A stretch of 64,000 bases of DNA. It comes from an uncultured Candidatus Saccharibacteria bacterium (GTDB taxonomy: Bacteria; Patescibacteriota; UBA1384; CAILIB01). Below the pieces are notes generated by a model. The model was not told the origin of the DNA. It did no database searches and saw nothing but the letters and a program-made list of their open reading frames with translations. This document shows positions 52,327-57,767 of the stretch, one piece after another. The position numbers and the translations under genes were made by a program. The stretch's first letter is position 1, and each line of letters starts with the position of its first letter. Location: positions 297,929-361,928 of the forward strand of contig CAZQKK010000001.1 in NCBI GenBank assembly GCA_964593885.1, read 5' to 3'.

Positions 52327-52401
52327 TGCCCGGTGGCCAAGTGGTAAGGCGCCTGATTCTGGATCAGGTTACCGTAGGTTCGAATCCTACCCGGGCAGCC
52401 A
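52327..52401 (+). tRNA. tRNA-Gln (anticodon CTG)
   Basis: TGCCCGG/CCGGGCA acceptor, anticodon arm CCTGA-TTCTGGA-TCAGG, T-arm GTAGGTTCGAATCCTAC, encoded CCA. Confidence 0.8.
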
Positions 52402-52402
52402 A

Positions 52403-52437
52403 AGAAAAAGAACAGACAATGTCTGTTCTTTTTCTTT
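52403..52437. terminator. Hairpin terminator after tRNA-Gln (agaacagaca-atg-tctgttct, A-run/T-run)
   Basis: Read from sequence. Confidence 0.5.
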
Positions 52438-52562
52438 GCTTATCTCGAGAGGATTCGAACCTACGGAGTAGGTGAGAATCCTATAGTCATGCATTTTGCA
52501 TGACTATCACGAGTGTCATATTCAGGTGAGCACAGTGAACCTGACTTGATACGAAGTATGGA

Positions 52563-52576
52563 GGGCAGCCAAAGAA
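52563..52576 (+). repeat. Direct copy of tRNA-Gln 3' end plus flank (gggcagccaaagaa; first copy 52394-52407)
   Basis: 14/14 identical, 16/18 with flank. Confidence 0.5.
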
Positions 52577-52662
52577 TAAGAAGCCCTTCTGGGTGTTTTT
52601 TGATAATTCTATAAGATTCAGGCTTGGCGACAATTCTTAGTAATCAGTAACATCTAGTACAT

Positions 52663-54477
52663 TTATTTATCAGGCAATACCTCTTGGAACCTCAGGATAT
52701 CTTCATAGCAATAGCCATCTGAAGTCTGATTAGCACGATTGATAATTGATGTAATAGGTAGCTTATTTCGCTTCGCAAAAGTTATAATTCCACTATAATG
52801 TAGTCCAGTTTTTTGACCGATAGCCAGTGCGCTCGCCCAATGTTTGCCATTTTTATCTGTATAGAATCCCGCCCATTCACCCGAGGTCTCAACTCTATTT
52901 TCTTCTGAAAGACGCCGTTTGATTGGCTCATAATCCAGTACATCCTCAAGACAGTAGGCAGTTGAAGTTCGGTGGCTTTTTACAGATCGTGTAGGCAAGT
53001 TACTTTCAGAAAGAAGTTTATGGGTGTTACTCGTATCAAGGTTAAGTTTTTTTGCAATTACGGAAGAACTTCCCCAGTGCCTTCCTTCTTCATCAACATA
53101 GAATCCCGCCCATTCACCCGAAGTCTCAACGTTGAGGGAACTGCGCTCAGTAAGGTATTCTTCTGGTACGAGGGGAATGAGTTGCTCTAAGCAGTACCCA
53201 ACTGTAACTCTATTGAGCAGATCTTTGATTGTTCTTGTAGTAAGTATCGAATTGTTGCTCTTTATAACTTGTTCAAGTTGACTCGGGTTGATCCCGATCT
53301 GTTTTGCAAGAGTATTTTTAGTGCTCCAGTGATTATACTCCTCATCTTCCCAGAAACCCTTGAAGGGATCTGAATCAGCTACTGAGACCTCTGGGGTCAC
53401 GAATTCCTGTTTGATTTCCTCCAATTGCTGCACATCCTCAATACAGTAGGCATCGTATATTGAGCCACGAATAGAGCGAATTTTTTGTGTAGTGAGCTGG
53501 TTATTATCCCTGAGAATAGACTCGAATTTCCCTTGTTTGATACCGAGTTTATTCCTAATTGCAGCTTGCGTTCCCCAGTGCTTACCAGCTTCATCTGTGT
53601 GAAACCCTTTCCATGGATCTAAATCATCGACGGAAGCTACAACGTAATCAGGTTCACCTTCGATATGTTCTGATGACCTTTCTTGCACTTGCATCGGTGC
53701 AAGTAGATACGTACTCATTACCTCTCGCCAAGCAGGCTGCTGGATAACCCTCATCCCAATCCCAGGAAGCTCCGCAATAATCGCATTTAAATCTTCTTTT
53801 GAAGCGTGGTCTAGCAAAGTGAGCTCAACGCCGATTTCACCAAGTAGCCCGGTGTCGAAAATATAGGAAGCGTTACCTTCTTCTTCACACACATACACCG
53901 CTCTCTCTAGTGAGGGGACTTCAACTCGGTAGTATGGCTCTTCTCTAAACCACCGTTCATCTACTTCTCCCCGAGTAATACCTATCTCCTCTGGGTTGAT
54001 GTCGCAATCAGATTCAAGTAAGAAGAGGAGCGTCTTGAGGCGGGGGATGATGTCTTTTTCGGTAAATGTGGACTCACCATTCCCGAGGGCCAAGGGTTGC
54101 GATCCGGGTGGGATGAGAAATGCATCTGATTCTCCAATAGCCGTTTCTGAAATACGTTCTTGTATGTCAAGTATTGTTTGCTGTATCTCTTGCGCTCGTT
54201 CCAGGGCACTACCAATACTGGATAGGCCAAAGAGCTCGTAAGCAGAATTTTCTAAGGCATCATCTGTGAGATTTGCTGTAGTGACCCCTGTCTCTTTGTA
54301 AGCAGTAGTAACTTCATCTGTAAGTTCAATCAGTGCATCCAAGACAGCATCCGCATACGTGTCTATGTTTTCTAGTGAAACATTCGTATGGAGAATGCTT
54401 TCAAGTTGATTCTGAAATAACTCCTGTTTTCTTGGAGTGTCAGGTCTAGTATGTGACGGCGGAAAATTCTCACTCAT
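52663..54477 (-). CDS. Hypothetical protein with four tandem ~75-aa repeats (W-x-G-F-x-D-E-x-G-x-HW ... G-Y-C-x-E-D) after a ~280-aa N-terminal domain
   Basis: Repeats DPWKGFHTDEAGKHWGT.., DPFKGFWEDEEYNHWST.., GEWAGFYVDEEGRHWGS.., GEWAGFYTDKNGKHWAS.. read directly. Confidence 0.6.
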   Translation of the reverse strand: MSENFPPSHTRPDTPRKQELFQNQLESILHTNVSLENIDTYADAVLDALIELTDEVTTAYKETGVTTANLTDDALENSAYELFGLSSIGSALERAQEIQQTILDIQERISETAIGESDAFLIPPGSQPLALGNGESTFTEKDIIPRLKTLLFLLESDCDINPEEIGITRGEVDERWFREEPYYRVEVPSLERAVYVCEEEGNASYIFDTGLLGEIGVELTLLDHASKEDLNAIIAELPGIGMRVIQQPAWREVMSTYLLAPMQVQERSSEHIEGEPDYVVASVDDLDPWKGFHTDEAGKHWGTQAAIRNKLGIKQGKFESILRDNNQLTTQKIRSIRGSIYDAYCIEDVQQLEEIKQEFVTPEVSVADSDPFKGFWEDEEYNHWSTKNTLAKQIGINPSQLEQVIKSNNSILTTRTIKDLLNRVTVGYCLEQLIPLVPEEYLTERSSLNVETSGEWAGFYVDEEGRHWGSSSVIAKKLNLDTSNTHKLLSESNLPTRSVKSHRTSTAYCLEDVLDYEPIKRRLSEENRVETSGEWAGFYTDKNGKHWASALAIGQKTGLHYSGIITFAKRNKLPITSIINRANQTSDGYCYEDILRFQEVLPDK

Positions 54478-54513
54478 ATCTTCCTCTAGTATAACTCATG
54501 ATACGATACCTAT

Positions 54514-54825
54514 ATGCTAACCAAACCAATCTCAGGTGGAACTTTCCACAAGCTTCCCGCAGACCTGCGTGATGCCCTCGTGGCGAAGCCAAAGGCACTC
54601 AAGGCGTGGGAGAGTCTCACCCCGCTAGCGCGTAACGAGTGGATTTGCTGGACAATCTCGGTCCAACAACAGAAGACTCGCGACCACCACATCAAGCGTG
54701 CGGTCACCGAGCTCCAGGAGGGGAAACGGCGGCCGTGCTGTTGGATTGGCTGCATCCATAGGACTGATAAAGCTATAAGTCCGTCAATTCGGGGCATACT
54801 TGCAAAACGGGGGAAGGCAAAGTAG
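54514..54825 (+). CDS. YdeI/OmdA-family (bacteriocin-protection-like) small protein
   Basis: LTPLARNEWICWTISVQQQKTRDHHIKRAVTELQEGKRRPC pattern. Confidence 0.5.
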   Translation: MLTKPISGGTFHKLPADLRDALVAKPKALKAWESLTPLARNEWICWTISVQQQKTRDHHIKRAVTELQEGKRRPCCWIGCIHRTDKAISPSIRGILAKRGKAK

Positions 54826-54832
54826 CTGTAGT

Positions 54833-55456
54833 ATGATTCGCAAAGTTTCTGGAACAACTGTCAGCTACAGAGATAGTCACCAAGGCACAATATTGGGCTG
54901 CATCGCCATTGCGGCAATTCCATTTTTTTATGGAATTCTTGACCTGGTTGATCATGGAACGGGGTTCAGTTTATTCAAGAGTACAGCTCCTCCATTCTTT
55001 GCGTTCGCACTCTTCCTCTATGCTGTAAAACGGTCGATAGATTTGAGAATTCAATCAGATGGAACGGTCACGTACCGAATGTCGCGTTTTGGGCTGGGGA
55101 AAACCTCCCAATTCACCAAGAAAGATATTACCGAAGTAGTGGTAGCCGCCCATATTGATGATCGTAGAGTTGTGGCACAGCTGAGACAGGTGAGGGGTAA
55201 GTCTGTTCCTAATCTCGAACCCATGACAGCGTGGGGTTGCTGGGTAATCACTGGAGAAAGAGAGCTGTTTCTCAGCCTACTTGGCTACACTAAGGGGGAC
55301 CCTGAAAAGTTTTTTGAAGATGAGAGCTATAGAGATGTGTATTCTCTGCCACAGGGATTGGCTCAGGAGCTAGGCGTACCCCTGAAACTAATGACGCGGC
55401 AGAAGGGATTTCTAGAAGAACTAGTAGTTACTAAGGGAGAACCTGAGTCAAAGTAG
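54833..55456 (+). CDS. Hypothetical membrane protein (2 N-terminal TM + soluble domain)
   Basis: ORF + hydrophobicity only. Confidence 0.4.
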   Translation: MIRKVSGTTVSYRDSHQGTILGCIAIAAIPFFYGILDLVDHGTGFSLFKSTAPPFFAFALFLYAVKRSIDLRIQSDGTVTYRMSRFGLGKTSQFTKKDITEVVVAAHIDDRRVVAQLRQVRGKSVPNLEPMTAWGCWVITGERELFLSLLGYTKGDPEKFFEDESYRDVYSLPQGLAQELGVPLKLMTRQKGFLEELVVTKGEPESK

Positions 55457-55474
55457 CTGTACCATCGCCCCCAA

Positions 55475-56736: not shown

Positions 56737-56804
56737 CGCCCGCCAACCAACCAGTCTCTGTCGTCACCAAGGTGGCGACTTTTTTGTTGCTATACTCACT
56801 ACAT

Positions 56805-57767
56805 ATGAAAGCAATTATCACCCCTTCCTACGGCCCTGCTGAACTCCAGCAGCTCAGAGAAGTACCTAAGCCATCGCCTAGCAAAGGTCAGGTGCTCATT
56901 AAGGTGCATGCGACTACGGTGAATCGGACCGATACCGGACTCCGTTCCGCACAGTACGTTGTCTCAAGGCTATTTACCGGCCTCCTGAAACCTCGCTTCA
57001 AAACCTTTGGGAGCGAATTTGCCGGGGAGGTGGTAGGTCTGGGTGAAGGAGTTACTGAGTTTGCTGTTGGTGACAGGATTTTTGGCTTCAACGACACCAT
57101 GTGCGGTGCGCATGCTGAGTACATGGTCACACCTGCCGCTGGTGCCATCGCCCCAATTCCCAAGGGGTTGAGTTACCTTGAAGCGGCGCCACTGGGTGAG
57201 GGGGCACAGTACGCACTCAACAACATTCGAGCAGCCGGCGTGAAAAAGGGTGATACGGTTCTGGTGTACGGGGCTAGCGGGGCAATTGGCTCGGCAGCGG
57301 TACAGATTTGCAAGTACCTGGGAGCAAGGGTGACTGCTGTATGCGGAACGAAGCACGTTGATCTTATCAAAACGTTCAAGCCAGATAGAGTAGTTGATTA
57401 CCAGCAGGAAGATTTCACCGATACCACAGAGCGGTATACCTTCATCTTTGATGCGGTGGGGAAGAGTACCTTTGGTGTGTGTAAGAAGTTGCTGCTCCCG
57501 GGGGGATCGTACTCATCTACTGAGCTGGGACCTCGAGGAGAGAATGTGTACCTGGCGCTCTGGTTTGCCCTCATCCGCAAGAAGACGCTACTCTTTCCTA
57601 TCCCGCAAGCAACCAGGGAAAAGGTTGAGTACATCAAAATGCTCGTGGAAAATGGCGATTTTACGCCACTTGTTGATAAGACCTACCCACTCAACCAGAT
57701 TGTAGAGGCAACCAAGTACGTAGAGAGCGGCCAAAAGGTAGGGAACGTGATTATCAAAGTTTTGTAA
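56805..57767 (+). CDS. NAD(P)H-dependent quinone oxidoreductase / zinc-type alcohol dehydrogenase superfamily (MDR)
   Basis: GroES-like N-term, Rossmann GASGAIGSAAVQICKYLGARV. Confidence 0.8.
   Translation: MKAIITPSYGPAELQQLREVPKPSPSKGQVLIKVHATTVNRTDTGLRSAQYVVSRLFTGLLKPRFKTFGSEFAGEVVGLGEGVTEFAVGDRIFGFNDTMCGAHAEYMVTPAAGAIAPIPKGLSYLEAAPLGEGAQYALNNIRAAGVKKGDTVLVYGASGAIGSAAVQICKYLGARVTAVCGTKHVDLIKTFKPDRVVDYQQEDFTDTTERYTFIFDAVGKSTFGVCKKLLLPGGSYSSTELGPRGENVYLALWFALIRKKTLLFPIPQATREKVEYIKMLVENGDFTPLVDKTYPLNQIVEATKYVESGQKVGNVIIKVL

Follow-up and report, generated by a model that had tools for sequence, protein, structure and literature searches.

TALE repeats are helical hairpins of 33–35 aa with one base to each repeat, and SelB is a protein with several winged helices that binds RNA. 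The small DNA-binding proteins BldC and Xis line up head-to-tail on direct repeats of DNA (PMC5859096). Much larger "polyvalent" proteins, in which SNF2 helicase and methyltransferase parts are joined, have been described from conjugative elements (Iyer et al. 2017, PMC5512222). With these systems we compared a gene in a 64,000-nucleotide stretch of DNA from an uncultured Candidatus Saccharibacteria bacterium (the window). Most genes of CPR bacteria (Patescibacteria) are without assigned function, and the organisation and protection of the genome in these organisms are little understood. The protein encoded by the gene, P0001, consists of a conserved N-terminal domain (N-domain) and four tandem helix-turn-helix (HTH)-like repeats, and it belongs to a family that is newly defined here and unnamed; our literature search found no description of such arrays in Patescibacteria.

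An intact ORF with four tandem repeats

The gene and its parts discussed first are:
52663..54477, minus strand: complete, intact ORF of family member P0001, 604 aa followed by a stop codon
54480..54493, minus strand: translation (possibly also transcription) signals of the ORF, read off the sequence
53410..53622, minus strand: repeat 1 (aa 286-356), with the LDxW motif; positional orthologue of the first repeats of family members
53173..53376, minus strand: repeat 2 (aa 368-435), diverging furthest of the four and also the most acidic (pI 4.75)
52924..53127, minus strand: repeat 3 (aa 451-518), the copy used for the structure model
52681..52890, minus strand: repeat 4 (aa 530-599), reciprocal best match of repeat 3 (41% amino acid identity)

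The ORF is not a pseudogene. P0001 and its homologues are co-linear across 95-100% of its length. Exactly the same architecture is shared by about 85 of the top-scoring 150 cluster representatives, and relative to these the ORF in the window is full length. The sequence GAGGAAG (54480-54486) lies 2 nt 5' of the ATG, and its GAGG core, 5 nt 5' of the ATG, is a ribosome-binding site. A -10-like hexamer, TATACT, is found at 54488-54493 on the minus strand; because a consensus promoter scan gave nothing at these upstream signals, we only infer its assignment as a -10 element. P0001 is very acidic overall (pI 4.65, net charge -44) and has a hydrophilic N-terminus, with no signal peptide, lipobox or transmembrane or hydrophobic segment detected (maximum Kyte-Doolittle value over 19 aa, 1.04). 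The GC content of the gene is 7.6 points under that of the rest of the window. Since a GC content below that of the flanks is general in the family (15 of 19 loci), we dropped low GC as a stand-alone sign of horizontal transfer.

A repeat HMM made from 46 repeats of nine other family proteins, with P0001 itself left out, detected exactly four domains in P0001, scoring 79.7, 56.1, 79.2 and 75.6 bits for repeats 1 to 4, while 1000 shuffled versions of the C-terminal region scored 7.3 bits at most. Pairwise blastp among the four repeats gave 26-41% identity with E-values of 4e-9 to 2e-21, and repeats 3 and 4 share 81% DNA identity over their first 58 nt. The four repeat strings quoted in a preliminary description of this ORF are all present, starting near aa 289, 372, 456 and 535. 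Its count of four holds, but its repeat length of ~75 aa was slightly short, the period being 79-84 aa with a core of ~66-70 aa. Of the Trp, His and Cys positions it called conserved, W6 and H17, together with E61, are at least 90% conserved in 50 repeats, whereas the Cys is less conserved (37 of 50). A metal site formed by the His and the Cys was considered and rejected, because each repeat has one His and one Cys, the Cys in those 37 copies only, and both residues are replaced in related repeat classes.

Predicted fold of the repeat

The AlphaFold2 model of a single repeat (repeat 3) had a pLDDT of 84.9 and the topology b-b-a-a-b-b-a, with elements at E17-20, H21-27, H32-41, E46-50, E54-59 and H60-70. 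In the model, an aromatic beta-hairpin (W-x-G-F-x-x-D-x-x-G-x-H-W) is packed on a winged helix-turn-helix (wHTH) in the order helix 1, turn, helix 2, two-strand wing and C-terminal helix, and the topology of the MerR/excisionase type (strand, helix 1, turn, helix 2, two-strand wing) is present. The repeats are near neutral overall and the hairpin is acidic. Lys and Arg cluster at repeat positions 27, 37, 40 and 47-53; a consistently basic character is confined to helix 2 and the wing, where the exposed positions vary more than any others in the repeat.

When the model was compared with the PDB by Foldseek, the top neighbours were nearly all wHTH DNA binders, at TM-scores of 0.45-0.54 and a best E-value of 0.23, which is not significant. 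They included the N-terminus of TniQ, P2 Cox (4lhf), BldC (6ama) and RacA (5i44), and further Pukovnik Xis (4j2n), SoxR, TraN and pSK1 Par. A profile search of PDB sequences gave mostly HTH proteins, all of them aligned at repeat positions 19-50. The best Pfam matches of P0001 were all below threshold (YdaS_toxin, E=0.003, 17.8 bits with a cut-off of 30; HTH_19, E=0.079); MerR_1 and HTH_17 were not found above the curated threshold, and no DNA-binding family matched P0001 at significance. Single repeats gave scattered Pfam matches to many HTH families at E-values of at least 0.002, none of them a confident match to a characterised domain.

Two distant relatives of the repeat gave higher scores. 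P0107 reached 54 bits for MerR_1, above the curated sequence cut-off, as a sum in which no single stretch passes, and P0051 exceeded the cut-off for HTH_10, HTH_AsnC and DnaD_N by summed score only; the PHROGs labels on the P0051 matches were "DNA binding", "MerR-like" and "excisionase". Alignment of the repeat profiles A3 and A5 with lambda Xis by hhalign showed no similarity, although this is a weak test with a single sequence as its target. PADLOC-DB 2.0 assigned P0001 to 0 families, and one repeat of the homologue P0004 matched the short HTH model mad1. Because Pfam, NCBIfam, PHROGs and PADLOC gave nothing above threshold for P0001, the repeat belongs to no described family, in agreement with the preliminary description. 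The sequence and fold matches are each weak, but they lead in one direction, nearly all of them pointing toward HTH DNA-binding domains (BldC, RacA, Xis, P2 Cox).

The N-domain

The region in front of the repeats was modelled by AlphaFold2 on alignment A4 and comprises:
54136..54438, minus strand: lobe 1 (aa 14-114), four-helix bundle (AlphaFold2, pLDDT 76-92)
54052..54135, minus strand: linker (aa 115-142) of low confidence, probably flexible, with invariant P123-P124 (alignment and AlphaFold2)
53698..54051, minus strand: lobe 2 (aa 143-260), alpha/beta (alignment and AlphaFold2)

The N-terminal domain of about 285 aa that had been described before is real and conserved, with a mean column identity of 44% among 10 proteins, and its HMM matched P0001 with E=6.6e-112. 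Lobe 2 contains the invariant residues R146, R178, Y182, R192, C197, E199, E200, N202, Y205, D208, K227 and W250 as well as an invariant hairpin motif, C-[DE]-E-E-x-N-A-[ST]-Y-x-F-D. All family-invariant residues of the N-domain are kept in P0001. Foldseek searches with the N-domain model against the PDB and BFVD gave only spurious helical-bundle matches, and neither Pfam scans of ten N-domain sequences nor a search of PDB sequences with the N-domain profile gave any match.

Family, architectures and distribution

We defined the family by the ~285-aa N-domain with invariant C197, E199, E200, N202, Y205 and D208, followed by an array of at least two W-x-G-F...H-W...Y-C-x-E repeats, the first of them with LDxW. 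In P0001, the N-domain is followed by four repeats and the first reads DDLDPWKGF. The repeat itself is more widespread: a profile search of sequences clustered at 50% identity found it in 566 cluster representatives, in arrays of 2-14 copies that either follow the same N-domain or are joined to SF2/SNF2 helicases, in part together with a methyltransferase. ResIII and Helicase_C are joined to an array in P0092, P0116, P0128 and P0144, and SNF2, Helicase_C and a methyltransferase (Methyltransf_11) in P0025, P0058, P0063, P0067, P0090 and P0149, giant proteins in which 8-14 repeats make up the N-terminal part. These fusions place the array in DNA-translocase contexts and support binding to nucleic acid.

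The family, which is unannotated, is almost confined to Patescibacteria. Within it the number of repeats shifts fast (2-9 copies) and entire array classes are exchanged; in other lineages of Patescibacteria, the same N-domain carries at least four other classes of repeat, which also form HTH-like arrays.

A variable slot beside tRNA-Gln

The gene lies next to a tRNA gene, with the following features around it:
52327..52401, plus strand: intact tRNA-Gln(ctg), the anchor of the variable slot
52451-52466, minus strand: partial copy of the tRNA-Gln 3' end
52563..52582, plus strand: direct copy of the tRNA-Gln 3' end (GGGCAGCCAAAGAATAAGAA; partial copy at 52563-52576), the left edge of the cassette
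52570..54513, no strand assigned: single-gene cassette, absent from a sister genome that is otherwise collinear

On both flanks of the gene, the sister genome is collinear and ~85% identical in DNA. Within these flanks it replaces exactly 52570-54513, which marks the gene as an accessory cassette of a tRNA-Gln hotspot. The slot in the sister genome (L035, 13087-15709) is occupied by a ResIII helicase that carries an HTH-like array of another kind, and this helicase weakly resembles the helicase modules of type IV restriction and of PbeA. Synteny with two related genomes ends just past the tRNA-Gln-derived repeat. Both the proximity to tRNA-Gln and the position at the start of an accessory region had been proposed in the preliminary description and were confirmed here.

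Discussion

Taken as a whole, P0001 is probably a cytoplasmic protein in which an acidic N-domain is combined with a DNA-binding wHTH array, encoded by an exchangeable cassette. DNA binding is the best-supported reading of the putative function of the array and is predicted from the fold, the matches and the fusion contexts. Against it stand the lack of significance of every match of P0001 to a DNA-binding family, the acidity of the protein and of repeat 2, the searches for a DNA target, which found no candidate, and the N-domain, in which no function was recognised. Helix 2 and the wing would most likely be the parts of each module that touch double-stranded DNA, and since the linkers between the repeats are short and near-constant in length, the four modules would sit side by side along the DNA. 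The array may thus reproduce, in covalently linked form, the head-to-tail filaments built by single MerR-like wHTH proteins such as BldC and lambda Xis. The N-domain would be the constant "output" part, possibly for oligomerisation, recruitment of a partner or an activity not yet recognised, and the array the exchangeable "address" part. The gene itself would move as a horizontally exchangeable single-gene cassette in the variable slot beside tRNA-Gln.

One possible but rather unlikely alternative is that P0001 is a component of a genetic-conflict system, for example a one-gene defence, an anti-defence factor or a factor of mobile-element maintenance, with an array that senses or marks foreign DNA and an N-domain that is a new effector. 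The replacement of this hotspot cassette by a helicase with an HTH-like array, and the resemblance of that helicase to restriction and PbeA modules, fit this idea, as do the quick changes in repeat number and the swaps of whole array classes. Related arrays also occur on SNF2-methyltransferase giants, beside a T4SS coupling protein (in one of these giants) and a tRNA-Gln, and 4 of 25 family genes have a tRNA within 500 bp. The low GC of the gene would fit as well, but it is general to the family. Against this idea, several members sit among housekeeping genes. An all-against-all comparison of ORFs from 27 loci revealed no conserved neighbour gene, nor did the Pfam-annotated neighbourhoods show an integrase. 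A tblastn search of 50,697 phage and 72,556 plasmid records gave no match to the family, and neither did a pattern scan of IMG/VR; PADLOC and PHROGs had no match for P0001, and the searches with the N-domain found no known effector fold.

Tandem winged helices can also bind RNA or proteins; the four of SelB bind an mRNA hairpin. P0001 might accordingly have the same architecture with modules whose ligand is RNA or a protein partner rather than double-stranded DNA, as a scaffold or a reader of RNA hairpins, although we consider this improbable. The fold is assigned to a generic winged helix only, the protein is strongly acidic, and fusion to SF2 helicases suits RNA as well. The searches for a DNA target were also empty: no tandem DNA repeats were found near the gene, and in the 400-bp upstream regions of 12 family genes no 7-10-mer reached three occurrences. 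Yet the nearest structural neighbours are DNA binders, and a SNF2-type ATPase fused to a methyltransferase near a T4SS coupling protein is a typical context of double-stranded DNA.

Of the two ligands suggested in the preliminary description, DNA is the better supported, and the cell wall is very unlikely: wall-binding proteins often have tandem repeats with conserved aromatics, and one of 50 repeats had a stray LysM_RLK match (E=0.098), but P0001 lacks a signal peptide, lipobox and hydrophobic segment, related arrays are joined to helicases and methyltransferases of the cytoplasm, and apart from that one match no wall-binding family (LysM, SH3b, CW_binding, SPOR) was matched in Pfam. The resemblance to phage-type Bro-N/KilA-N modules suggested there, or a decaying prophage remnant or pseudogene, is suggested by the adjoining tRNA fragments and one poor Foldseek match to the Mbp1 APSES domain, a KilA-N relative (1bm8; prob 0.38, rmsd 7.7 A), but is refuted at the level of the tests run, since no Bro-N, KilA-N or ORF6N profile matched P0001 even at E<=10 or any single repeat, the predicted fold is a beta-hairpin with a wHTH, the phage, plasmid and IMG/VR collections held no homologue, and the full-length ORF keeps its invariant residues and ribosome-binding site.

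With the reading of P0001 as an N-domain joined to a DNA-binding array, the repeat gains a testable, putative role as part of a DNA-binding wHTH array. The analysis also documents that two closely related genomes differ by a clean exchange of single-gene cassettes at a tRNA-Gln hotspot, and it shows that one conserved N-domain as well as helicase and methyltransferase heads combine with several array classes. If the arrays recognise specific sequences, they would add a new case of modular DNA recognition in nature, and if the N-domain is an effector, it would be a new component of conflict systems; if neither is true, the family would be one more lineage-specific HTH regulator. A more speculative and in our opinion doubtful generalisation is that CPR bacteria and their conjugative elements use exchangeable hairpin/wHTH arrays as DNA "address" domains, whose target would be set by the variable residues of helix 2 and the wing and which would be plugged onto "heads" such as the N-domain, SF2 helicases or SNF2-methyltransferases; single-gene cassettes competing for the tRNA-Gln slot would then form a new class of DNA-directed factors of defence or against mobile elements, in which the N-domain would represent a new effector fold.

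Among the known systems, KilA-N, Bro-N and APSES domains are likewise small and widely shuffled DNA-binding modules, but apart from the one poor match to Mbp1 they differ from the repeat in the order of secondary structure and share no profile match with it. TALE arrays have the concept alone in common, namely evenly spaced tandem modules with variable putative contact residues and varied "heads"; P0001 shows no sign of a code or of specificity. Several winged helices in one bacterial polypeptide, as in P0001, are also found in TraN of pIP501 (4pm3), which is among the weak Foldseek matches of the repeat and whose two winged-helix copies are not sequence repeats, and in the C-terminus of SelB with its four winged helices. 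The giant proteins with a homologous array, SNF2, Helicase_C and Methyltransf_11 can be likened to the polyvalent proteins (PMC5512222), from which P0001 differs in having neither a helicase nor a methyltransferase domain. BldC, Xis of lambda and Pukovnik, and RacA share the predicted strand/helix-turn-helix/wing topology and recur as top Foldseek neighbours (6ama, 4j2n, 5i44), at E-values that are not significant and with no detectable sequence similarity to the repeats. These proteins are stand-alone MerR-like modules, whereas P0001 has four modules in one chain, each with an extra aromatic beta-hairpin at its N-terminal side, attached to an N-domain of 285 aa.

Four tandem repeats in an intact reading frame

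The 604-aa protein is encoded by an intact ORF on the minus strand (52663..54477), preceded by a ribosome-binding site with a GAGG core 5 nt upstream of the ATG; because the ORF is intact, a pseudogene reading was rejected. The four repeat strings listed in the preliminary description were all found in the protein. An HMM trained only on 46 repeats from nine other proteins recovered exactly four domains, confirming the tandem arrangement, and each scored far above the best of 1000 shuffles of the C-terminal region (7.3 bits).

Repeats of the 604-aa protein and their scores with the independent HMM
Repeat 1, aa 286-356, 79.7 bits
Repeat 2, aa 368-435, 56.1 bits
Repeat 3, aa 451-518, 79.2 bits
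Repeat 4, aa 530-599, 75.6 bits

The repeats have a period of 79-84 aa, a core of ~66-70 aa and pairwise identities of 26-41%. Repeats 3 and 4 match each other best in both directions, and their starts share 81% DNA identity across 58 nt.

Predicted fold and surface of the repeat

AlphaFold2 gave a confident model of the repeat from a 50-repeat alignment (pLDDT 84.9), in which the W-x-G-F...G-x-H-W segment forms an N-terminal beta-hairpin, followed by two helices (21-27 and 32-41), a wing of two strands (46-50 and 54-59) and, starting at the Y-C-x-E-D motif, a C-terminal helix. As modelled, the repeat is a winged helix-turn-helix (wHTH) with an additional N-terminal hairpin. The whole protein had no match above threshold in Pfam, NCBIfam, PHROGs or PADLOC, and the sole signals were sub-threshold HTH matches to one same repeat segment (YdaS_toxin, E=0.003; also HTH_19, HTH_26 and CENP-B_N). 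A Foldseek search of the repeat model against the PDB found nothing significant (best E 0.23); the list consisted mostly of MerR/Xis-type wHTH DNA binders, none of them significant, at TM 0.45-0.54, including the TniQ N-terminus, P2 Cox, BldC, RacA, Pukovnik Xis, SoxR, TraN and pSK1 Par. Profile searches of PDB sequences returned mainly HTH proteins, aligned to repeat positions 19-50, and hhalign of the repeat profile against lambda Xis was negative. These comparisons agree, if weakly, and we therefore place the repeat in the wHTH class, with a MerR/Xis-like topology and no named family assigned; the Bro-N/KilA-N reading suggested at first was rejected.

Column statistics showed that Lys and Arg are enriched at positions 27, 37, 40 and 47-53, that is, in helix 2 and the wing, that the most variable positions are the exposed ones of helix 2, and that the acidic parts are the hairpin and the residues following the wing. 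This distribution fits a DNA-facing surface. The Cys is present in 37 of the 50 repeats, both it and the conserved His are substituted in related repeat classes, and the two residues are probably structural.

A constant head on interchangeable arrays

Among 5.8 billion proteins, a word-indexed search picked out just ten relatives, all built on one plan, an N-domain of ~285 aa followed by 3-8 repeats. When 1.84 billion cluster representatives were searched exhaustively with the repeat profile in HMMER, 566 proteins passed E<=1e-3, of which 283 also passed E<=1e-10; about 85 of the 150 best of the 566 carry the N-domain followed by 2-9 repeats. In a scan of one genome per species, 23 family loci were detected, nearly all in Patescibacteria MAGs (Paceibacterota, Kerfeld-, Nomura-, Magasanik-, Kaiser- and Saccharibacteria); the other three lie on contigs of 1.8-2.7 kb labelled Gammaproteobacteria (two) or Coriobacteriia (one), which may be mis-binned. 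The named relatives of the window GluRS are "Patescibacteria group" and "Candidatus Peribacteria". Family members with a source name are all "hypothetical protein", except for two labels that JGI assigned automatically to distant N-domain relatives. In a Nomurabacteria MAG, one family gene is split inside the repeats between a contig end (L006) and a contig start (L023); since assemblies evidently break inside arrays, repeat counts from MAGs may be too low.

The AlphaFold2 model of the N-domain (pLDDT 76) has three parts.

Parts of the N-domain model
aa 14-114, four-helix bundle
between bundle and lobe, low-confidence linker with an invariant Pro-Pro
aa 143-260, alpha/beta lobe

Most of the invariant polar residues are in the lobe (R146, R178, R192, E199, E200, N202, D208 and K227). 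The N-domain is acidic (pI 4.1-5.1) and had no match in Pfam, PADLOC, PHROGs, PDB sequences, PDB folds or BFVD. In other CPR lineages it precedes at least four other repeat classes: a Trp-rich ~65-aa unit in up to 6-7 copies (L011, L012, L014 and L024; F-L-S-F-E-D-F...W-Y...H-x-N-W-P-S-x-P...Y-K-x-K-G-W-x-G-W-x-E-L-V-G-K-E-N), which has no Pfam match, an "APEGYLS...LGV...YRF...GYSP" unit, an "APEGWMTN...NPEWFK...HYSPEL" unit and a fourth type in L009. The detectable matches in these C-terminal parts are nearly always of HTH, GntR, MarR or Ish1 type, with a few unrelated weak exceptions, and the N-domain therefore behaves like a fixed head whose DNA-binding-like arrays are interchangeable. Positional orthology holds for the first repeats, whose best match is another protein's first repeat in 61 of 80 cases, and the LDxW motif is restricted to them; later repeats were often duplicated within one protein (27% have their best match there).

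Cassette exchange at the tRNA-Gln slot

Upstream of the slot lie the housekeeping genes dnaE, a methyltransferase gene, L19 and gltX, and then tRNA-Gln(ctg).

Features of the slot and the stretch downstream
52327-52401, plus strand, intact tRNA-Gln(ctg)
52372-52418 and 52420-52466, 47-nt imperfect palindrome, 83% complementary, holding the tRNA-Gln 3' half
52451-52466, exact inverted copy of the tRNA-Gln T-arm 16-mer
52563-52576, second, direct copy of the tRNA-Gln 3' end (GGGCAGCCAAAGAA), left edge of the cassette
52570-54513, cassette
54514-54825, plus strand, 103-aa OmdA/YdeI-domain ORF, divergent, 36 bp from the start codon of the 604-aa gene
54800..55456, 218-aa ORF without a family match, overlapped by the OmdA/YdeI ORF by 26 nt
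54815-54830 and 55446-55461, 16-nt direct repeat AG[G/T]CAAAGTAGCTGTA
56772..57767, zinc-dependent alcohol dehydrogenase gene

The window and the sister genome, whose GluRS is 93% identical, remain collinear at ~85% DNA identity until ~52569, and collinearity restarts exactly at 54514, where the OmdA-like gene has its ATG. Between these blocks, 1.94 kb hold the 604-aa gene alone. Exactly at its position, the sister locus (L035, 13188-15536) encodes a 782-aa protein that has a ResIII SF2 helicase at its N-terminus and about five HTH-like repeats of another class (W-x-T...L...HYPP) at its C-terminus; in a more distant relative, the slot is occupied by a FecR/fn3 gene. Since a single gene is replaced exactly between collinear flanks, the 604-aa gene is a one-gene accessory cassette at a hotspot beside a tRNA.

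The partial tRNA-Gln copies, still more numerous in the sister locus, resemble scars left by several rounds of integration and excision. The helicase part of the 782-aa protein has a weak likeness to type IV restriction and PbeA helicase modules. The same variable region holds another small indel, 54835-55445, a segment that is flanked by the 16-nt repeat and missing from the sister genome. Further along the accessory stretch, the alcohol dehydrogenase gene (segment 56789-57759) is absent in L035 and present in the more distant L037. Two homologues (L001 and L002) likewise have OmdA genes nearby, probably by chance or shared genome ancestry.

Evidence on the mobility and context of the gene is mixed. 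It is 7.6 points lower in GC than the remainder of the window, although low GC is general among family genes (15/19 loci). A comparison across 27 loci gave no conserved neighbour gene, and the neighbourhoods annotated with Pfam contained neither integrase nor phage genes; several family members are located among housekeeping genes, and a tRNA lies within 500 bp of 4 of 25.

Repeat arrays on other proteins and possible roles

Relatives show the repeat in three other arrangements: 4-8 copies at a ~73-aa period behind only a short leader; 8-14 copies at the N-terminus of 1300-1970-aa proteins with SNF2, Helicase_C and Methyltransf_11; and 4-7 copies C-terminal to ResIII/Helicase_C SF2 helicases. 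Distant repeat-only relatives exceed the summed Pfam cut-offs of MerR_1, HTH_10, HTH_AsnC and DnaD_N and match the PHROG families "DNA binding", "MerR-like" and "excisionase". The strongest indirect argument for nucleic-acid binding by the module, with dsDNA as the most likely ligand, is that its arrays are repeatedly fused to DNA translocases. One giant protein of 1967 aa (L032, 8001-13904) has 12-13 related repeats followed by SNF2, Helicase_C and methyltransferase domains; it adjoins genes for a T4SS coupling protein, an AAA ATPase and ORF6N, 280 bp from tRNA-Gln(ctg), in what looks like an integrative conjugative element of a CPR genome.

The hotspot swap with a helicase-array protein and the relatives on conjugative elements suggest a role in genetic conflict (as defence, anti-defence or mobile-DNA control). 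Neither a defence-database match nor a partner gene supports such a role, and it is about as likely that the protein is an ordinary regulator or architectural protein specific to its lineage. That the modules bind RNA or protein is a minority alternative, and the cell-wall ligand also considered in the preliminary description was rejected.

A covalent array compared with known assemblies

On the best-supported reading, the four wHTH modules, whose linkers vary little in length, would bind side by side along DNA, with the N-domain supplying oligomerisation, partner recruitment or an unrecognised activity; we infer both the DNA binding and the geometry. Against it count the similarity scores, none of which is significant, the very acidic whole protein, and a search for a target site that found none. 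The helix-turn-helix core is a familiar kind of module. New are the repeat family itself, an unannotated unit predicted to combine a beta-hairpin with a wHTH, its deployment in long covalent arrays, the conserved N-domain without an assignable match, the combinatorial pairing of heads and arrays, and the cassette exchange documented at the tRNA-Gln slot. BldC and Xis assemble head-to-tail on direct repeats (PMC5859096), and the array may be a covalent analogue of such assemblies.
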